A DNA stretch of 64,000 bases, taken from the sequence record MH560358; one strand, written 5' to 3'. The notes under the pieces are model-generated. The model saw nothing but the letters and a program-made list of their open reading frames with translations, was not told the DNA's origin and did no database searches. Origin of the DNA: Escherichia virus KFS-EC. This document shows, piece by piece, positions 1 to 58,194 of this stretch. A program made the position numbers and the translations under genes. Numbering within the stretch: position 1 is the stretch's first letter; every line of letters begins with the position of its first letter.

Positions 1-16
1 GGTTGCAGATGACCTT

Positions 17-2566
17 ATGTGGAGTAATACCGCAAACTATTTCGATGACCCGACCGCACGAAATCTTGATAAATTTGGGGCATTTCGTACTAATGATATG
101 GATGGTCATCTAGCACTTGCTTTGCATATTCCCCATCCTAGCGGTATAAATCATGCTCGTGGGTTTGATTTTACTTATGGTTCTAACGTTGTTCCTACTG
201 TAAAAACCTATGGTTATAACGCTGATGGTGTATTGGCATATTCATATCGCATGTATCACGAAGGTGATAAGCCTAGTCCGTCAGAATTAAATGTATACAG
301 CAAACAAGAAGTAGACCGGATGTTCCAGAAGACCATCAACTTTGGTGTAGAAACTGGATGGTTTAAAATTGCTACCGCCTTTATTCCGCAAAATGATGGA
401 CGTAGCTTGAAAATTAGATTGATTGGTGGAAGTGGGTGGAACGTAGGACAAACTGGACAATGTAATATTATTGAACTTGTTATAAGGACTAGCAACGGTT
501 CGCCTAAAGGAATTAACTTTGTTGCGTATCATCATGTTTCTGGTTACGAAAATCAATTTTGTGCCATTAATACAGGTGATGACACTTATGATATCTATGC
601 ATATTACTTCGAATTTACTAATATGGTAATGGCTGAATATCAAGCGTCCAGCGGTGTTAATTTAACTGTACTTGATCGACCTGAATATGTCGGCGAAAAA
701 CCTGTAGCTGATCATATCTATGATGCATATACAATATACTCCTTTAACAGTTTCAGTAACCGTGGAACGTTAAATTTTGCTGGAAACCCTCAAGGCCAAT
801 ATGACATTGAGCATTTGAACGTGCAACAAACTAACAGCAAAAAGATGTTGCGTCGCTTCCGTAGTTCTGGTCCTGCCACTATCTGGCATGAGACAGTTGA
901 TGATAACCAGTATCGTCTTGCTACTGGATACGAAGATACAAATCAGGAATTATTGCTGACAGCAACATCCGGGTTACATGTCAAGAAATTAACATTGGAT
1001 GGCGGTGTCACTGGAAATTCTGGTATTGATATTCGTCGAGGACCAAACGAATCAAGCCATTTTAATTTCATGGATTATCGCACTGGACAAGATGTTCGTA
1101 ATGGTTGGTTTGGTTTTGGTGATGGAACAACCAAAGATTTTATTTGGTGGAACGATAACGGTCAAAACTCTATAAACCTGATTGAAGACGGTGAATTACA
1201 TATTACTGGCGGTAGAGGCCAGAAAATTGTAATGAATAGCGAAGTTGCATTATCTGAAAATGCTCGTTTGGCTGTTAAAGGTGGCAATTATGGCTTAATT
1301 TTTAGAAATGATGGCGTTGGCTTCCATATTCTTACCACAGATCTCGGTGATTCATTTGGACCGTGGAATACTCGTAGACCATTCAGCTATGATTTTGCGG
1401 ACGGTGGATTGTATTTAGGTGGTACTGCAACCGCTCGTTGTTTGCATCTGGGAATTGATGGTAGCACTCGTCTCGAAGACAACCTTTTCTTTAAAGCTGG
1501 TTCTCGTCAATCTATGGACTATATGGAACTAGTCCATTGGGGGGCAAGCAATACAGGTCGAAATAACGTTTTAAGTCTTCGTGACTCAAAAGGATTTTTC
1601 GCAGAATTTGAACGATTGGGTGATGATACCATTAAAAACACCTTCTTCGGGAAACTTAAAGTTAATCGTGGTTCTGACGCAATCGTCATGAATGCCGAAA
1701 CGGGTGATTCGTCTATATATTTGCTGGGTACTTGTGCTGATAATAACAACTGGTATATCGGTAAAGGTGGTGCTGATAATGGATTAGCGTTCTATAGCTA
1801 TGCTACTAATGCTGCTATCAATATTACAAACGCTGGTGATATCGCGCTAAGTCCAAAAGGTGTCGAAATGACTCATGTCAATAACGTTCGATTCTATGTT
1901 CATGGTGAACGTTGGACTGCTAGCCAATCTGGAGGCTGGGGCGATCAATGGGGATTAGAAGCGCCGATATTTGTCGATCATGGTTATGTTGGACCAGATA
2001 GCTATTATCCAATTATTAAAGGAAGAAGTTTAATCACCAATCAAGGGTATACAACTGCCGTCGATTTTGGTCTTCGTCGTGTTCCTCAAAATTGGGGGCA
2101 AGCTATTATTCGTGTTGGATCTGCGGATGCATCGCCAGCGGCTGGTCATCCTCAAGCTGTATTCGAGTTCCATCATGATGGTACTTTCTATTCTCCTGGT
2201 AATGGTAACTTTAACGATGTTTATATTCGTTCCGATGGTCGTCTGAAAATTAATGTTGAAGATTACGAAGAAAATGCGGTGGATAAGGTAAATAAACTCA
2301 AAGTTAAAACCTACGATAAAGTTAAATCTCTTAATGACCGAGAAGTTATAGGTCATGAGATTGGTATTATCGCACAGGATTTACAAGAGGTATTACCGGA
2401 AGCTGTTAAAACCGCAAAAATTGGTGGTCTTGATAACCCAGAAGAAATTTTAACAATTTCAAACTCCGCAGTGAACGCGCTTTTAATTAAAGCGGTCCAA
2501 GAAATGAGCGAAGAAAATAAACTTCTTCGTGAACGTCTTGCTGCAATTGAAGCTAAATTAGGGTAA
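17..2566 (+). CDS. tail fiber protein, 3' portion (gp37-like long tail fiber distal subunit) with C-terminal intramolecular chaperone domain; 5' end lies outside the window
   Basis: 849-aa ORF open to window start; last ~130 aa (DKVKSLNDREVIGHEIGIIAQDLQEV... then coiled coil) fit the tail-fiber/endosialidase intramolecular chaperone pattern; sits just upstream of holin t as gene 37/38 does in T4. Confidence 0.6.
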   Translation: MWSNTANYFDDPTARNLDKFGAFRTNDMDGHLALALHIPHPSGINHARGFDFTYGSNVVPTVKTYGYNADGVLAYSYRMYHEGDKPSPSELNVYSKQEVDRMFQKTINFGVETGWFKIATAFIPQNDGRSLKIRLIGGSGWNVGQTGQCNIIELVIRTSNGSPKGINFVAYHHVSGYENQFCAINTGDDTYDIYAYYFEFTNMVMAEYQASSGVNLTVLDRPEYVGEKPVADHIYDAYTIYSFNSFSNRGTLNFAGNPQGQYDIEHLNVQQTNSKKMLRRFRSSGPATIWHETVDDNQYRLATGYEDTNQELLLTATSGLHVKKLTLDGGVTGNSGIDIRRGPNESSHFNFMDYRTGQDVRNGWFGFGDGTTKDFIWWNDNGQNSINLIEDGELHITGGRGQKIVMNSEVALSENARLAVKGGNYGLIFRNDGVGFHILTTDLGDSFGPWNTRRPFSYDFADGGLYLGGTATARCLHLGIDGSTRLEDNLFFKAGSRQSMDYMELVHWGASNTGRNNVLSLRDSKGFFAEFERLGDDTIKNTFFGKLKVNRGSDAIVMNAETGDSSIYLLGTCADNNNWYIGKGGADNGLAFYSYATNAAINITNAGDIALSPKGVEMTHVNNVRFYVHGERWTASQSGGWGDQWGLEAPIFVDHGYVGPDSYYPIIKGRSLITNQGYTTAVDFGLRRVPQNWGQAIIRVGSADASPAAGHPQAVFEFHHDGTFYSPGNGNFNDVYIRSDGRLKINVEDYEENAVDKVNKLKVKTYDKVKSLNDREVIGHEIGIIAQDLQEVLPEAVKTAKIGGLDNPEEILTISNSAVNALLIKAVQEMSEENKLLRERLAAIEAKLG

Positions 2567-2573
2567 TTGGAAA

Positions 2574-2591
2574 GCGGGGAGAAATCTCCGC
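2574..2591 (+). other. stem-loop (GNRA-type loop) just after tail fiber stop; no T-tract
   Basis: gcggggagaaatctccgc forms a 7-bp stem with GAAA loop 8 nt after the stop codon; not followed by a U-run, so probably an RNA stability/processing structure rather than a terminator. Confidence 0.3.
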
Positions 2592-2604
2592 TAAGGATTC
2601 TTAT

Positions 2605-2928
2605 ATGGGATATTGGGTAAGTAGTGAAATTAATACTAAAATCGATGCTTTAAAATGGCATGTATTTGATATTCCTAACGGCTATGGTACTGCTCGTGCT
2701 GGTGTCGCTGTAATGCGTCATAATGCTGGTGGTGGGTGGTCTGATGCACATATTAACGTAGATGGTTTGACCGTTGCTCGTCGTCGTGGTGGGACCAATT
2801 GGGGATCTACTATAAATTCGTTTGTTCCTGCTGGCTGCACCGTCTCCTTTGGTTTAGGGGGTGAAGGTGGTGACTCAGAATTGCTTTTGCATGGCTTTTG
2901 TGTGTCTGGAAGTCATAAGGGGTCATGA
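2605..2928 (+). CDS. hypothetical protein, Gly-rich, in the position gene 38 occupies in T-even phages
   Basis: 107-aa ORF with AAGGA 8 nt upstream of ATG; co-directional with tail fiber gene. Confidence 0.4.
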   Translation: MGYWVSSEINTKIDALKWHVFDIPNGYGTARAGVAVMRHNAGGGWSDAHINVDGLTVARRRGGTNWGSTINSFVPAGCTVSFGLGGEGGDSELLLHGFCVSGSHKGS

Positions 2929-3087
2929 TTGGGGACAGATCCATTCTTGTATTGTGCCGCAGGGAGTAACGATCACGGTAACTACAAACAGGGGTATTTC
3001 CCATCTTCGTTATAGACGCTTGAGCAACCGTTAAAAAAAGAATTAAGGAAAACTCCCAGGGAAGGGAACTACTAAGGAGAAACGGCT

Positions 3088-3306
3088 ATGGTCTATAATA
3101 TCGTCATTGGTGCTTTGTCTAATTTCGGAATGAAACTATTGTCAAAGTTAATTAGTGAAAAGATGCTCACTAAAATTTTCTTCTATTGCGCTCGTCGTCT
3201 TGCGGCTTATACCAATACGCCAATTGATGATCGTTTTGTGGAAGAACTTTATAAGGAGTTTAATAAAGATCAGTCAGAAGATAGCAACGAGCAAAATAAA
3301 AAATAG
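3088..3306 (+). CDS. hypothetical small protein
   Basis: 72-aa ORF with strong RBS (AAGGAG, 7 nt spacing). Confidence 0.45.
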   Translation: MVYNIVIGALSNFGMKLLSKLISEKMLTKIFFYCARRLAAYTNTPIDDRFVEELYKEFNKDQSEDSNEQNKK

Positions 3307-3361
3307 TGATAGTCAAGTACCTAAATAAGAGTACACTGTCATAGTTATCTTAGGGCATTAT

Positions 3362-4018
3362 ATGCAAGTTTCTGAAAAAGGGAAAGACTTTTCTATCTCA
3401 AATGTCCTGCGCGCTATTTTCACAACTAAAAGCACGGAGTTGCTCGTACTTCGTGTTTTTGCTGCCGTCGTGTTGTCCATATTAGCATTTGTCGTTTATA
3501 GTAAAAACGAGTTATTTGCGCTTTATAAAGAGACTCGTTATGAGACTTATGCTCACGTTCTCCAGGTAGAGAAAGACCGCAATTTTGATAATGCAGCACA
3601 GGAGCAGTTACAGATAGTTCATGTGTCGGCTGATGCCGATTTTTCTGCTGTTTTTAGTTTTCGTCCGAAAAACCTAAACTATTTTGTTGATTTGGTGGCA
3701 TATGAAGGAAAGTTACCGCATACAATCGATGAAAAAAATTTAGGCGGATTCCCTATCAATAAAACGAGTGAAGAATATCGTAGGCATCTTTTAGGTAAAT
3801 CCTATTTTACCGATAAAGATTTCCAGTATATTCCATCAAGAGAAAAGAAATTAGAGAGTATCGATATAGGGGTTATGTATTCTTGTCCTATATTCAATCT
3901 CGACAATGTCTATTCTGGTAGTATCTCCATTGCATGGAAGAATAAACCGGATATTGACATTGAGAATTTAGATACTCTTTGCAATCAATCTGCCAGAATC
4001 CTCGGAAGGATTAGATAA
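3362..4018 (+). CDS. t: holin (T4 t-type, class III holin)
   Basis: 218 aa, same length as T4 T; single N-proximal TM segment; extended identity to T4 holin (EQLQIVHVSADADFSAVFSFRPKNLNYFVDLVAYEGKLP, SCPIFNLDNVYSGSI, ARILGR). Confidence 0.92.
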   Translation: MQVSEKGKDFSISNVLRAIFTTKSTELLVLRVFAAVVLSILAFVVYSKNELFALYKETRYETYAHVLQVEKDRNFDNAAQEQLQIVHVSADADFSAVFSFRPKNLNYFVDLVAYEGKLPHTIDEKNLGGFPINKTSEEYRRHLLGKSYFTDKDFQYIPSREKKLESIDIGVMYSCPIFNLDNVYSGSISIAWKNKPDIDIENLDTLCNQSARILGRIR

Positions 4019-4024
4019 CTTAAA

Positions 4025-4056
4025 GGGGAAGCCTTTCGGCCTCCCCTTCTTTTTAT
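4025..4056. terminator. bidirectional rho-independent terminator between convergent late (plus) and early (minus) units
   Basis: ggggaagcc-tttc-ggcctcccc hairpin followed by ttctttttatt; sits between holin stop (4018) and end of minus-strand ORF (4053). Confidence 0.65.
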
Positions 4057-4301
4057 TGGCGCATAGAAGCCCCTGAATCACATTTTGACGCTGTATGATG
4101 AAAACAGGTAGCGTACCAGTCATCGGCTTGTTTGTCTTCGTCAGAAAACGCGTAATTGCGTTGTATGCCGTTTTCTACTTTGACCAGTGCAATAGCTGTT
4201 TCTGGAAGATCAATCAATCGGACAAAATCACCATCTTCCCACTCTACACGAGCAATATCATAGCCCATCTCAAAGTATACAATCGCTTGTTCTAATTTCA
4301 T
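4053..4301 (-). CDS. hypothetical protein (82 aa)
   Basis: ORF in track; start overlaps stop of upstream gene (4298); last gene of minus-strand unit before terminator. Confidence 0.5.
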   Translation of the reverse strand: MKLEQAIVYFEMGYDIARVEWEDGDFVRLIDLPETAIALVKVENGIQRNYAFSDEDKQADDWYATCFHHTASKCDSGASMRQ

Positions 4302-55140: not shown

Positions 55141-55381
55141 AGTTTACCCACTCAACAAGGTCTTTACCTAACTCGAAAGCCCATTCTCGGTCCTGCTTTA
55201 CGTTTTGTAGGTATGGACTTTCCGACACTCGACGAAGTGATCTTGTCGTAACAAGAATGATCCCAGGAATGTTCGGATGTTCCTTTCCATATACAATAGG
55301 ACGCGAGTCACTATCAATACCCTGTAAGAAGGTGTATCCCGAATCACTTAGGATCATATACATTTTCATTTCATCCATCAC
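55040..55381 (-). CDS. hypothetical protein
   Basis: 113-aa ORF. Confidence 0.45.
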   Translation of the reverse strand: MMDEMKMYMILSDSGYTFLQGIDSDSRPIVYGKEHPNIPGIILVTTRSLRRVSESPYLQNVKQDREWAFELGKDLVEWVNCEDENQRNHERKIARISQRRKLDEIKNRILQSM

Positions 55382-55638
55382 AGTTTCCTCAACCAGTTAT
55401 TAAAGCGAGTAAACCATGATGCTTTTCGTGCTTCTTCTTCGGCTTTGCACGCACGCAAACCACTGAAACACCATTCATAATCATCACTGAAACATGATTC
55501 AACAGGAACACCCGCATTTCGTAGTTCTCTGGTCGTTATCATGAATCCTTGACATAATGGGCGACCTTCAACAATGATAGGAAGTTTAACTTTTTCCATG
55601 AAAGTATACCCAGCACGGTCAATAATTTCAATCTTCAT
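55378..55638 (-). CDS. hypothetical small protein, MKIEIID family member 1
   Basis: 86 aa; MKIEIIDRAGYTFMEKVKLPIIVEGR...; paralog of 55657..55854 and 57973..58194. Confidence 0.5.
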   Translation of the reverse strand: MKIEIIDRAGYTFMEKVKLPIIVEGRPLCQGFMITTRELRNAGVPVESCFSDDYEWCFSGLRACKAEEEARKASWFTRFNNWLRKL

Positions 55639-55656
55639 AATATAATCCTCAATTAG

Positions 55657-55854
55657 TTATACCGCCCAGGCTTCATTTGCACGAAAACACCATTCATACT
55701 CAGGAAAATAACCTTTAATTGGTACGCCAGCTTTTTGTAGTTCCTGCGTTTCTACAAGATAATCAAGCCCATATCGACGACCTTCCACGATGATAGGAAG
55801 TTTAACGCCATTCATGAAAGAAAATCCACCATCATCAATAATTTCAATTTTCAT
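55657..55854 (-). CDS. hypothetical small protein, MKIEIID family member 2
   Basis: 65 aa; MKIEIIDDGGFSFMNGVKLPIIVEGR... Confidence 0.5.
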   Translation of the reverse strand: MKIEIIDDGGFSFMNGVKLPIIVEGRRYGLDYLVETQELQKAGVPIKGYFPEYEWCFRANEAWAV

Positions 55855-57039: not shown

Positions 57040-57068
57040 CTTTGATTCTCCTTAGTTGGTATGCGTGC

Positions 57069-57096
57069 ATTATAGCATTGTGATTATCTTTGTCAA
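57069..57096 (-). promoter_or_regulatory. early sigma70-type promoter
   Basis: minus strand TTGACA-16-TATAAT, followed by leader ...AACTAAGGAGAATC and ATG 57039. Confidence 0.55.
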
Positions 57097-57097
57097 C

Positions 57098-57133
57098 ACC
57101 CAAAAACAAAAAAGGCTACCCCGAAGGATAGCC
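57098..57133 (-). terminator. rho-independent terminator after the gp38-like gene
   Basis: minus strand GGCUAUCC-uucg-GGGUAGCC hairpin followed by UUUUUUGUUUUUG. Confidence 0.55.
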
Positions 57134-57140
57134 CATAAAA

Positions 57141-57917
57141 TTACACGCGAGCACCGTAGATCGTGCCTACTTTATCCCAGCGTGGAGCATTACCAGTAAC
57201 GGCTTTACCAGCAGCACCACCGTTATATTCTGTACCGTTACCCTGAGTATTACATCTTCCTCCAGCAGCACCAACGTTACCGCCCGCACCGCCTGTATAT
57301 GCACTAAGAGACCCCTTACCAACAGATCCTTTACCCGGAGCGGAAATGGAGCCAGCGGTTGCACCAGAACCCATATTAGAGGAAGACCCGGCAGCACCGA
57401 ATGGGCAACCACCGCCGCCACCAAATACTAGTCGACCCCTGTTACCGCCGCCACCGCCGCCACCGCCGCCAGCGATAGCACCGTTATTTGTAATTCGTAG
57501 ACGTGTACCGATAGCGTTATTGATTGCGTTTCCACCAGCAGCGCCAGCAGCGTTACTACCACCATTACCCCCACGTCCGTAGACAGTCACACCGGAGTTA
57601 ATGATCAATGTTACATATTCGTTTGTTAACGAGCTAGGGAAGTCAAGACAAGGAACGCCAGTAGATTGGGAAACAATATTACCTGTGATAGTAATTACTA
57701 CCGGAGTAGATCCTTGTGCTTTCATCCAGTTAATAAGAGTGTCTTTATTGTAAGAGTTACTAGCACCAATGCTATAATGAATCTCTTTAGAGCGTCCGAC
57801 CATTGCCGACATATACGCCGGACGACCTAAGCGTACAGCTTGCATTGCGGCGCTCATCCACCGTTGACCAGTCTCGGACACAGCAGATGATCCTACCCAT
57901 CCAGAAGATATTGCCAT
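57141..57917 (-). CDS. glycine-rich gp38-type tail-fiber adhesin-like protein
   Basis: 258 aa; N-terminus GWVGSSAVSETGQRWMS...GRSKEI resembles the gp37-binding region of T2-type gp38 as recalled; then YGRGGNGGSN..GAAGGN, NNGAIAGGGGGGGGG and further Gly-rich blocks separated by short variable segments; GAGGA RBS. Confidence 0.6.
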   Translation of the reverse strand: MAISSGWVGSSAVSETGQRWMSAAMQAVRLGRPAYMSAMVGRSKEIHYSIGASNSYNKDTLINWMKAQGSTPVVITITGNIVSQSTGVPCLDFPSSLTNEYVTLIINSGVTVYGRGGNGGSNAAGAAGGNAINNAIGTRLRITNNGAIAGGGGGGGGGNRGRLVFGGGGGCPFGAAGSSSNMGSGATAGSISAPGKGSVGKGSLSAYTGGAGGNVGAAGGRCNTQGNGTEYNGGAAGKAVTGNAPRWDKVGTIYGARV

Positions 57918-57972
57918 AAAATTTCCTCATAAGAAAAGCCCCAATTAAGGGGGCATTGATTGATAATATTAC

Positions 57973-58194
57973 TTAGATGACCTCTGCTTCACCATCCAGG
58001 AAGAAAGACCATGTTTTGTTAGGATAGCGAAGCGCCCATGATTCAGCAGTTTTAACACCCGCTTCGAACAATTGACGGCTGGTTACTTTAGCCATACCAT
58101 CTTCGATGGCAACGTTTTCAATAATCATCGGGTACTTAGCGCCACGCATGAAACCGAAACCAGCGGAAGATTTGATAATTTTAACAGTTGCCAT
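57973..58194 (-). CDS. hypothetical small protein, MKIEIID family member 3
   Basis: 73 aa; MATVKIIKSSAGFGFMRGAKYPMIIEN...; followed by hairpin GCCCC..GGGGC + U-run (57933..57960). Confidence 0.45.
   Translation of the reverse strand: MATVKIIKSSAGFGFMRGAKYPMIIENVAIEDGMAKVTSRQLFEAGVKTAESWALRYPNKTWSFFLDGEAEVI

Follow-up and report, generated by a model that had tools for sequence, protein, structure and literature searches.

Which protein stands at the long-tail-fibre tip of Escherichia virus KFS-EC, and what are the small genes that follow its fibre gene, at the place where gene 38, encoding the tip adhesin gp38, normally sits? We addressed these questions in a stretch of 64,000 nucleotides (nt) from this phage (sequence record MH560358), called the window hereafter and numbered from its first letter; the KFS-EC genome is listed as NC_055757 in PMC11767321. 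A first-pass annotation, made from the letters alone, had noted that the fibre gene, gene 37, ends in a chaperone-like domain, that open reading frames (ORFs) of 107 and 72 amino acids (aa) rather than a recognisable gp38 separate it from the holin gene t, and that a gp38-like gene occurs elsewhere, and it took the receptor-recognition module to be rearranged. We consider it likely that the region is the distal end of a Krischvirus long-tail-fibre operon, with the remnant of a broken cassette of three genes, designated A, B and C, behind gene 37. The chaperone domain, its cleavage motif, its partnership with gp38 and the distant gp38 locus have all been described already; the interest lies in the 107-aa ORF, which points to a family of three genes, narrow and unannotated.

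The slot between gene 37 and dc5

By DNA similarity, bases 1-4100 of the window are placed in Krischvirus (RB49-like Straboviridae), with kvi, G37-3 and MIZ4/5 as the top matches. The slot between gene 37 and the small gene dc5 is empty in RB49, holds a gp38 of 259-260 aa in kvi, MIZ4 and FL15, and holds the three tandem genes A, B and C (98, 99-101 and 100 aa) in G2248, UPWr_E1 and G37-3. The ORFs listed by the first-pass annotation are all present where it placed them, and no gp38 is encoded between gene 37 and holin t in KFS-EC; what had been overlooked is a second frame, 2861-3034, that carries on the 107-aa ORF past a 1-nt frameshift. With both frames taken together, the KFS-EC slot contains a truncated A, no B, and a C that is both truncated and frameshifted, rather than three tandem members.

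The 107-aa ORF (2605..2928, plus strand) is a chimera, in which 89 codons of gene A (2605-2872) are followed by 17 codons that correspond to codons 48-64 of gene C (2873-2922) and by a premature stop. Its product is near-identical to the A protein of G37-3 up to the motif GLGGEGG, is 99% identical to an A protein derived from the Sequence Read Archive (SRA), and has 68% alignment identity to codons 1-98 of G2248 A. A family hidden Markov model (HMM) of about 99 positions, built in this analysis from an alignment (A2) of these proteins, which no Pfam family covers, matches the ORF at model positions 1-88 only, short of full length, and its positions 62-98 match a C-type copy in the other frame. 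The two parts meet in frame at a deletion junction (2866..2872, plus strand) within the microhomology GGTGGTG, which the 3' end of A shares with the middle of C. The BLAST segments against G37-3 overlap here, with 2212-2872 on the A side and 2857-4100 on the C side, and relative to that phage about 478 nt are gone, comprising the last 9 codons of A, gene B in full and codons 1-47 of C. Beyond the junction, a run of four G at 2919..2922 (plus strand), three in relatives (AAGGGGTCATGA vs AAGGGTCATGA in the comparison with G2248), introduces a +1 frameshift, and the ORF stops at 2926-2928. The tail of gene C, codons 63-100, persists out of frame at 2921..3034 (plus strand) with 97% protein identity to G2248 C; in tblastn, residues 63-100 of that protein match 2918-3031 at 97%, in the frame of a 57-aa ORF. 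This layout reflects a microhomology-mediated deletion that fused A codon 89 to C codon 48 with loss of B, after which the additional G frameshifted the rest.

The exact 107-aa protein (YP_010097273.1) is known from a single contig, that of KFS-EC itself. Pfam and PHROG assigned no family to it or to intact A, B and C, and a PHROG "tail protein" match at 0.009 was taken as noise. The possibility that the ORF is a degenerate gp38 was rejected, since tblastn with gp38 returned nothing at 2605-3034 and hhalign gave the family a probability of 0.4% against gp38.

Two independent SRA assemblies (L015, 5397-5735; L016, 633-971) carry a -1 frameshift of gene A in a run of five G (P0001), a run that corresponds to 2857-2861 of the window, 5 nt upstream of the KFS-EC junction. 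Taken with the change from G3 to G4 at 2919-2922, this frameshift points to the runs of G that code for Gly-rich loops as indel hot spots; alternatively, it stems from homopolymer sequencing error.

A GC-rich stem-loop can be read from the sequence between gene 37 and the 107-aa ORF (2574..2591, no strand assigned); G2248 has a putative terminator annotated at the corresponding place, and the stem-loop was not called in a consensus terminator scan. Searches around the small ORFs for T4-type late promoters (TATAAATA), sigma-70 promoters and intrinsic terminators gave no result above chance, so these ORFs are presumably co-transcribed with gene 37. The 72-aa ORF (3088..3306, plus strand) does not stand in for gp38, being a conserved, syntenic homologue of RB49 Dc5 (dc5/ORF251w; phrog_402, E 4e-20) that precedes holin t in all relatives examined, RB49, kvi, MIZ4 and G2248 among them. 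It has 7 codons fewer than the usual 79, owing to a run of six A at 3298-3303 where relatives such as G37-3 have five. The protein collection has this variant (YP_010097274.1) on three contigs, which makes a genuine polymorphism probable. The holin gene t follows at 3362..4018 (plus strand; Pfam Phage_holin_T, E 3e-60; phrog_860, E 2e-87).

Gene 37, its chaperone domain and the distant gp38

Gene 37 (2..2566, plus strand; 854 codons and a stop) encodes the distal subunit of the long tail fibre. Its frame is open already from base 2, and the alignment with kvi gp37 begins 198 nt into the gene of that phage, so the gene is cut by the window's left edge; about 66 codons lie outside, and the ATG at 17, from which the first-pass annotation had started the fibre ORF, is not the true start. 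The 849-aa ORF from that ATG (17-2566) matches phrog_1699, "long tail fiber protein distal subunit" (E 2e-112), the gene product also matches Pfam Gp34_trimer, and the part within the window is 84% identical in nucleotide sequence to kvi/MIZ4 gp37 over 1-2521.

That the fibre ends in an intramolecular chaperone (IMC) was borne out. The IMC domain (Peptidase_S74 / ICA; 2231..2563, plus strand) comprises the last 111 aa of gp37, the extreme C-terminus of this long-tail-fibre-type protein, with a coiled-coil-like tail at its end. PF13884 is matched over its whole length (model 1-58 of 58; aa 739-798 of the 849-aa ORF) with 53 bits against a cut-off of 22 (E 4e-14). When a profile built from six related C-termini was searched against PDB, it found S16 gp37 (6F45_A, E 3e-27), the ICA domain of MYRF (7DC3, E 2e-8), a tail fibre (8JOV, E 2e-8) and the IMC of the GA-1 neck appendage (3GUD, E 4e-3), and a single-sequence search with phmmer gave an alignment to 6F45_A that begins at the cleavage motif and includes the GxIAQE helix.

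At the start of the domain lies a predicted autocleavage site, DVYIR^SDGRLK (2216..2248, plus strand), recognised by its match to the published site of the fPS phages. DVYIR occupies 2216-2230, and the Ser-Lys dyad that the first-pass annotation had proposed to look for is found in SDGRLK, where the predicted catalytic Ser (2231-2233) and Lys (2246-2248) stand five residues apart. The pattern D(V/I)YIR^SDxR(L/V)K is common to the fibres compared (14/14), with SDxRxK invariant, and SDGRLK aligns to SDRRIK of S16 (site DLNVS^SDRRIKK). According to PMC7917993, the last 113 residues of S16 gp37, its IMC, are autocleaved at DLNVS^SDRRIKK, whereby the docking surface for gp38 is exposed; the fPS phages have DVYIR^SDGRLKI at the position equivalent to the S16 site (PMC7917993). 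The fPS phages carry gp38, and kvi, MIZ4, FL15 and RB49, which share the tip motif of KFS-EC, all encode it. From the homology to S16 we infer that gp37 is autocleaved in KFS-EC: the IMC would help the gp37 trimer to fold and then cut itself off between the R and S of the motif, leaving a flat DVYIR tip as the new C-terminus of gp37, on which a separately encoded gp38 would dock and bind the receptor. The first-pass annotation had read an IMC without an adjacent gp38 as a sign of a rearranged receptor module. That contrast does not hold, because the two work together in T2/S16-type fibres, where release of the IMC exposes the gp38 docking surface; by this analogy the IMC and gp38 are partners, not alternatives.

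A gp38 gene is indeed present in the window, about 55 kb from gene 37 rather than immediately downstream of it (57141..57917, minus strand; 258 aa; Pfam GP38, E 5e-71; Gp38_N, E 4e-18; also found by tblastn). The first-pass annotation was right that the gene exists and mistaken in calling it an orphan, as this is the standard position in the genus, shared with RB49, Phi1, JSE, GEC-3S and ELT3. The locus is 99.7% identical to that of ELT3 and 97-98% identical to those of RB49, Phi1 and JSE, where it is annotated as gene 38; taken with its flanks, it shows 96-99.7% DNA identity across ELT3, RB49, Phi1, JSE and ECD7, and in GEC-3S it has the same position. Both positions of gp38 are known in Krischvirus, some phages carrying it away from the holin (PMC12032242). 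The adjacency of genes 37 and 38 is a feature of synteny and not a functional need, and the receptor-recognition module of KFS-EC is, as far as its sequence tells, complete and typical of the genus. With an IMC on gp37 and gp38 elsewhere, KFS-EC would follow the published S16/T2 mechanism in the published gene order of RB49.

In kvi, FL15, FL20, MIZ4/5, Skers, G2248, G37-3 and UPWr_E1 only the flanks of this locus occur and the gp38 gene is missing from it; in phages without the distant gp38 its flanking genes directly adjoin. The small ORFs flanking gp38 (55378-55638, 55657-55854 and 57973-58194, minus strand) look mutually paralogous, with MKIEIID.(A/G)G(Y/F).FM..VKLPIIVEG and related forms as their common pattern, and gp38 sits between two of them. 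Given that the flanking genes adjoin where gp38 is missing, these repeats may be recombination substrates for its gain and loss. Just downstream of gp38, 57040-57140 (minus strand) contains a strong stem-loop, GGGCTATCC-TTCG-GGGTAGCC, with a T-run, and directly past it a near-consensus sigma-70 promoter (TTGACA, 17 nt, TATAAT). We take this combination to resemble the promoter-early-stem-loop cassettes that are reported as gene shufflers in RB49-type phages. Upstream of gp38, a gene of late function in an early-gene region, 57918-57972 holds a hairpin only and no late promoter of the TATAAATA type. Within the gene, a nine-glycine run lies within 57346-57582 (minus strand); the matching DNA of TB34 is annotated as a tandem ACCGCCGCC repeat, making a slippage site in the glycine-rich motif of gp38 possible.

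The tip and the chaperone of KFS-EC gp37 have different relatives. Residues 531-743, the 213 aa that make up the distal tip and end with DVYIR, have 94% identity to gp37 of MIZ4, a phage with an adjacent gp38, and 28% to that of G37-3. The IMC has 91-93% aa identity to G37-3 and to the A/B/C-associated fibres of L009, L011 and L014, and 65-67% to kvi, MIZ4 and FL15. This switch of identity between tip and IMC puts a recombination crossover at the conserved cleavage motif. Gene 37 of KFS-EC is thus a recombinant: its mature tip is of the gp38-associated MIZ4/kvi type, and its IMC and the DNA downstream belong to the A/B/C-associated type. The chaperone domain arrived, or was kept, in one block with the A/B/C DNA.

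The A, B, C family and its possible role

The products of A, B and C are tandem paralogues of about 100 aa, with roughly 25-32% identity between types and an invariant FxIPNG motif. Among 5.8 billion clustered proteins, searches recovered 52 homologues, every one of them enterobacterial and annotated as hypothetical, and among 1.84 billion representative proteins they recovered 19 clusters; unique members numbered 30 for A, 34 for B and 31 for C. The genes are carried by 3 of 50,697 phage records, and the loci fall in three settings: Krischvirus phages (three isolates), E. coli and Salmonella assemblies that contain siphovirus-like elements, and T7-like contigs. A six-frame HMM scan found exactly three tandem members at every intact locus, directly after a fibre gene bearing an S74 domain, even where the gene caller had given only two genes; two error-prone SRA contigs have the triplet with a frameshifted gene A. 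In a neighbour-joining tree, positions 1, 2 and 3 form three separate clades, each with E. coli and Salmonella members, and the T7-like copies fall in the same three clades in the same order. The gene ends abut or overlap (2-nt gap, 1-nt overlap), a spacing compatible with coupled translation. Partial position-wise entropy values for the A and B clades revealed no clear pattern, such as a clustering of variability in one set of loops as in gp38. We found no description of these genes in the searchable literature on Krischvirus and gp38, IMC and C1q fibres, UPWr_E1 or KFS-EC.

In the siphovirus-like elements (L008-L014, L021-L024), A, B and C follow a lateral fibre of 1030-1230 aa with a Peptidase_S74 domain. 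Such an element has a lambda-type portal, an S78 protease with an HK97-type capsid, and a GpJ-like tail tip. Its fibre DNA has 77-87% nt identity to large parts of gene 37 of the window, and one stretch is 96% identical to gp37 of the Tequatrovirus phages RB32 and RB33, which is evidence, at the level of sequence, for recent exchange of fibre modules between virus families. When the element was compared with the phage collection at the DNA level, the fibre gene alone found matches, all of them T4-like phages, and so this type of element is not represented among sequenced isolates. In two Logan SRA contigs (L025 and L026; 3.1 and 2.5 kb), the cassette follows a T7-like, gene-17-type fibre (Phage_T7_tail and S74) that has a T7 N-terminal domain but is T-even-like at its distal tip (NGSFNDVQVR^SDKRLK) and carries an S74 chaperone; the ORF after the cassette is one that we take to be a T7 17.5-type holin. 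No sequenced isolate with this T7-like arrangement was found among the phage records.

Intact A/B/C and gp38 were mutually exclusive in the genomes checked; they use the same slot and accompany fibres with the same D(V/I)YIR^SD tip. In the complete genomes of G37-3 and G2248, two gp38 queries (tblastn and phmmer) found nothing better than E 6, and positive controls gave 1e-52 to 1e-168. The cassette always occurs with self-cleaving fibres and, in the complete Krischvirus genomes examined, instead of gp38. KFS-EC departs from this pattern in carrying gp38 together with a broken cassette, a combination that would be expected if the two were functionally redundant or incompatible.

A fibre-tip module or adhesin alternative to gp38 is, on these data, a possibility that at its strongest approaches an even call. 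In its basic form the concept is of a separately encoded tip protein that docks after release of the IMC, the window holding a remnant only. A is predicted from modelling to be a C1q/TNF-like jelly roll, and because the triplet is invariant and its members form three clades, A, B and C may be a heterotrimer: the intact proteins would form a 1:1:1 C1q/TNF-like knob on a DVYIR-type tip in the place of gp38, and the cassette would decay in KFS-EC because gp38 supplies the tip role. We put forward only tentatively the fuller proposal, that A/B/C are an undescribed receptor-binding tip of this composition on D(V/I)YIR, interchangeable with gp38 and moving with the IMC between myo-, sipho- and podoviruses, and that KFS-EC captures gp38 displacing them. 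Several points weigh against it. The whole-genome absence of gp38 covers two of the three isolates that bear the cassette, G37-3 and G2248. A profile search of the 1.84 billion representatives turned up no fibre protein to which an A/B/C-like domain is fused, and hence there is no Rosetta-stone support; the long proteins that the profile did match are repetitive, with partial matches only. The N-termini of A, B and C (MxxWV) bear a short resemblance to the Trp prong of gp38 (GWVGSS) that is no more than suggestive, and distant members of the family do not conserve the Trp. The 107-aa chimera may still adopt the A fold in the models, and hence is perhaps not inert. Finally, the additional G could be a sequencing error, in which case the ORF would be a 143-aa A::C fusion.

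The last two of these points lead to other explanations of the KFS-EC remnant. We infer that the 107-aa ORF is a relic without a required function in KFS-EC. It seems decidedly unlikely that it is instead a functional new gene, whose product might, for example, cap the tip as a single subunit or modulate how gp38 docks. Its in-frame fusion and its retained start codon and AAGGA ribosome-binding site would suit such a role, as would the AlphaFold2 model, which preserves the A fold and has the grafted C segment form the last strand; the model has a mean confidence score (pLDDT) of 73.7 vs 83.3 for intact A, with residues 100-107 disordered, and is biased in that the underlying alignment consists of intact A sequences. 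The HMM match that ends at position 88, the absence of B, the frameshift in C, the restriction of the exact protein to one contig and the retention of all three genes at every other locus speak for a relic. It is very improbable that the deletion and frameshifts arose in assembly or sequencing and that the phage itself carries the cassette intact. Both small indels do lie in homopolymers (G3 to G4 at 2919-2922; A5 to A6 at 3298-3303), and the two SRA assemblies described above have another frameshift in the neighbouring G5 run (P0001). Yet the joined sequences share only about 13 nt of near-identity, which we judge too short for an assembler collapse that loses 478 nt, and the 72-aa Dc5 variant recurs on three contigs. 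In the comparison with G37-3, 117 of the 131 ORFs matched are intact; the splits listed number 7 and, as we read them, concern short plus-strand ORFs where the annotated genes are on the minus strand; as no genuine gene elsewhere in the 64-kb window was found split by a frameshift, the frameshift at 2919-2922 is probably real.

For the family as a whole, the main alternative to a tip adhesin is that A/B/C, and by extension the relic, are non-structural factors of fibre assembly, additional chaperones that work alongside the IMC like T4 gp38/gp57A or Tfa, which the tip of KFS-EC would no longer need. We regard this as unlikely on balance. The cassette strictly adjoins an IMC-bearing fibre gene in all contexts and in KFS-EC travelled with the IMC, not with the mature tip, and genes for fibre chaperones commonly lie directly downstream of the fibre genes (PMC9608196); against this, the fibres concerned already have a chaperone of their own, the proteins show no likeness to the Tfa or gp38 families (no Pfam match, and the hhalign result above), and three conserved C1q/TNF-like paralogues fit a structural heterotrimer better than a catalytic chaperone. 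Assembly factors would also leave G37-3 and G2248 with no dedicated adhesin, though a bare gp37 tip could bind a receptor as it does in T4. An improbable reading is that A/B/C are accessory genes unrelated to the fibre, such as genes for superinfection exclusion or anti-defence, carried along as hitch-hikers at a recombination hot spot beside the fibre gene. In keeping with this, the content of the gp37-to-holin slot varies, and all members of the family are annotated as hypothetical only. But the same three clades stand in the same order beside S74 fibres in three virion architectures at 37-40% identity, a pattern that speaks for a functional link with the fibre more than for chance hitch-hiking; inspection of the sequences disclosed no signal peptide or lipobox for receptor masking, and the cassette and gp38 exclude one another.

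If A, B and C are tip adhesins, host-range predictors that seek gp38 or gp37 tips would miss a determinant of specificity, the cassette would be a new portable module for fibre retargeting, and the family would represent a second solution to the binding problem that arises at the tip once the chaperone has left. KFS-EC is a biocontrol candidate, and its own specificity most likely comes from the distant gp38, not from the relic.

Comparison with known systems

The fibre tip of KFS-EC most closely follows the S16/T2 type (PDB 6F45), a gp37-gp38 system that reportedly goes back to Dunne et al. 2018. The C-terminal region and the equivalent cleavage motif are alike, KFS-EC likewise encodes a T2-type gp38 (Gp38_N and a glycine-rich GP38 domain), and the predicted mechanism is the same, in which release of the IMC leaves a docking tip for monomeric gp38. 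In S16, however, gene 38 lies directly after gene 37, as opposed to about 55 kb away in the KFS-EC window; the fibre shaft before the tip is unrelated to that of KFS-EC; and the IMC of KFS-EC has been swapped by recombination for one of the A/B/C cassette type.

In gene order, KFS-EC resembles RB49, Phi1 and JSE, with which it shares the backbone, a gp38 near tk/rI, dc5 and holin t after gene 37, and the DVYIR^SD site with its IMC. RB49 differs in that nothing stands between gene 37 and dc5, where KFS-EC has a cassette remnant of about 470 nt, and in the body of gp37, which is only about 40% identical to that of KFS-EC.

The cassette itself has its counterparts in G37-3, G2248 and UPWr_E1, where it occupies the same position from gene 37 to dc5. 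G37-3 is close, with an IMC 91-93% identical in amino acid sequence and a gene A 93% identical in nucleotide sequence. In all three phages the three genes are intact, unlike the broken cassette of KFS-EC, and G37-3 and G2248 have no gp38 in the genome, whereas KFS-EC does.

The IMCs of endosialidase K1F, T5 pb1 and GA-1 gp12 belong to the same Pfam family, carry the SDxRxK motif and are likewise C-terminal on a trimeric fibre. They are distant in sequence, only that of GA-1 (3GUD) having been reached by the profile (E 4e-3), and they differ in that the KFS-EC fibre is expected to recruit a separate adhesin after cleavage. For the predicted fold of A, the nearest systems are the C1q/TNF-like trimeric heads, namely those of C1q (its A, B and C chains), collagen VIII/X NC1, BclA and the C1q-domain fibre tips of phages.

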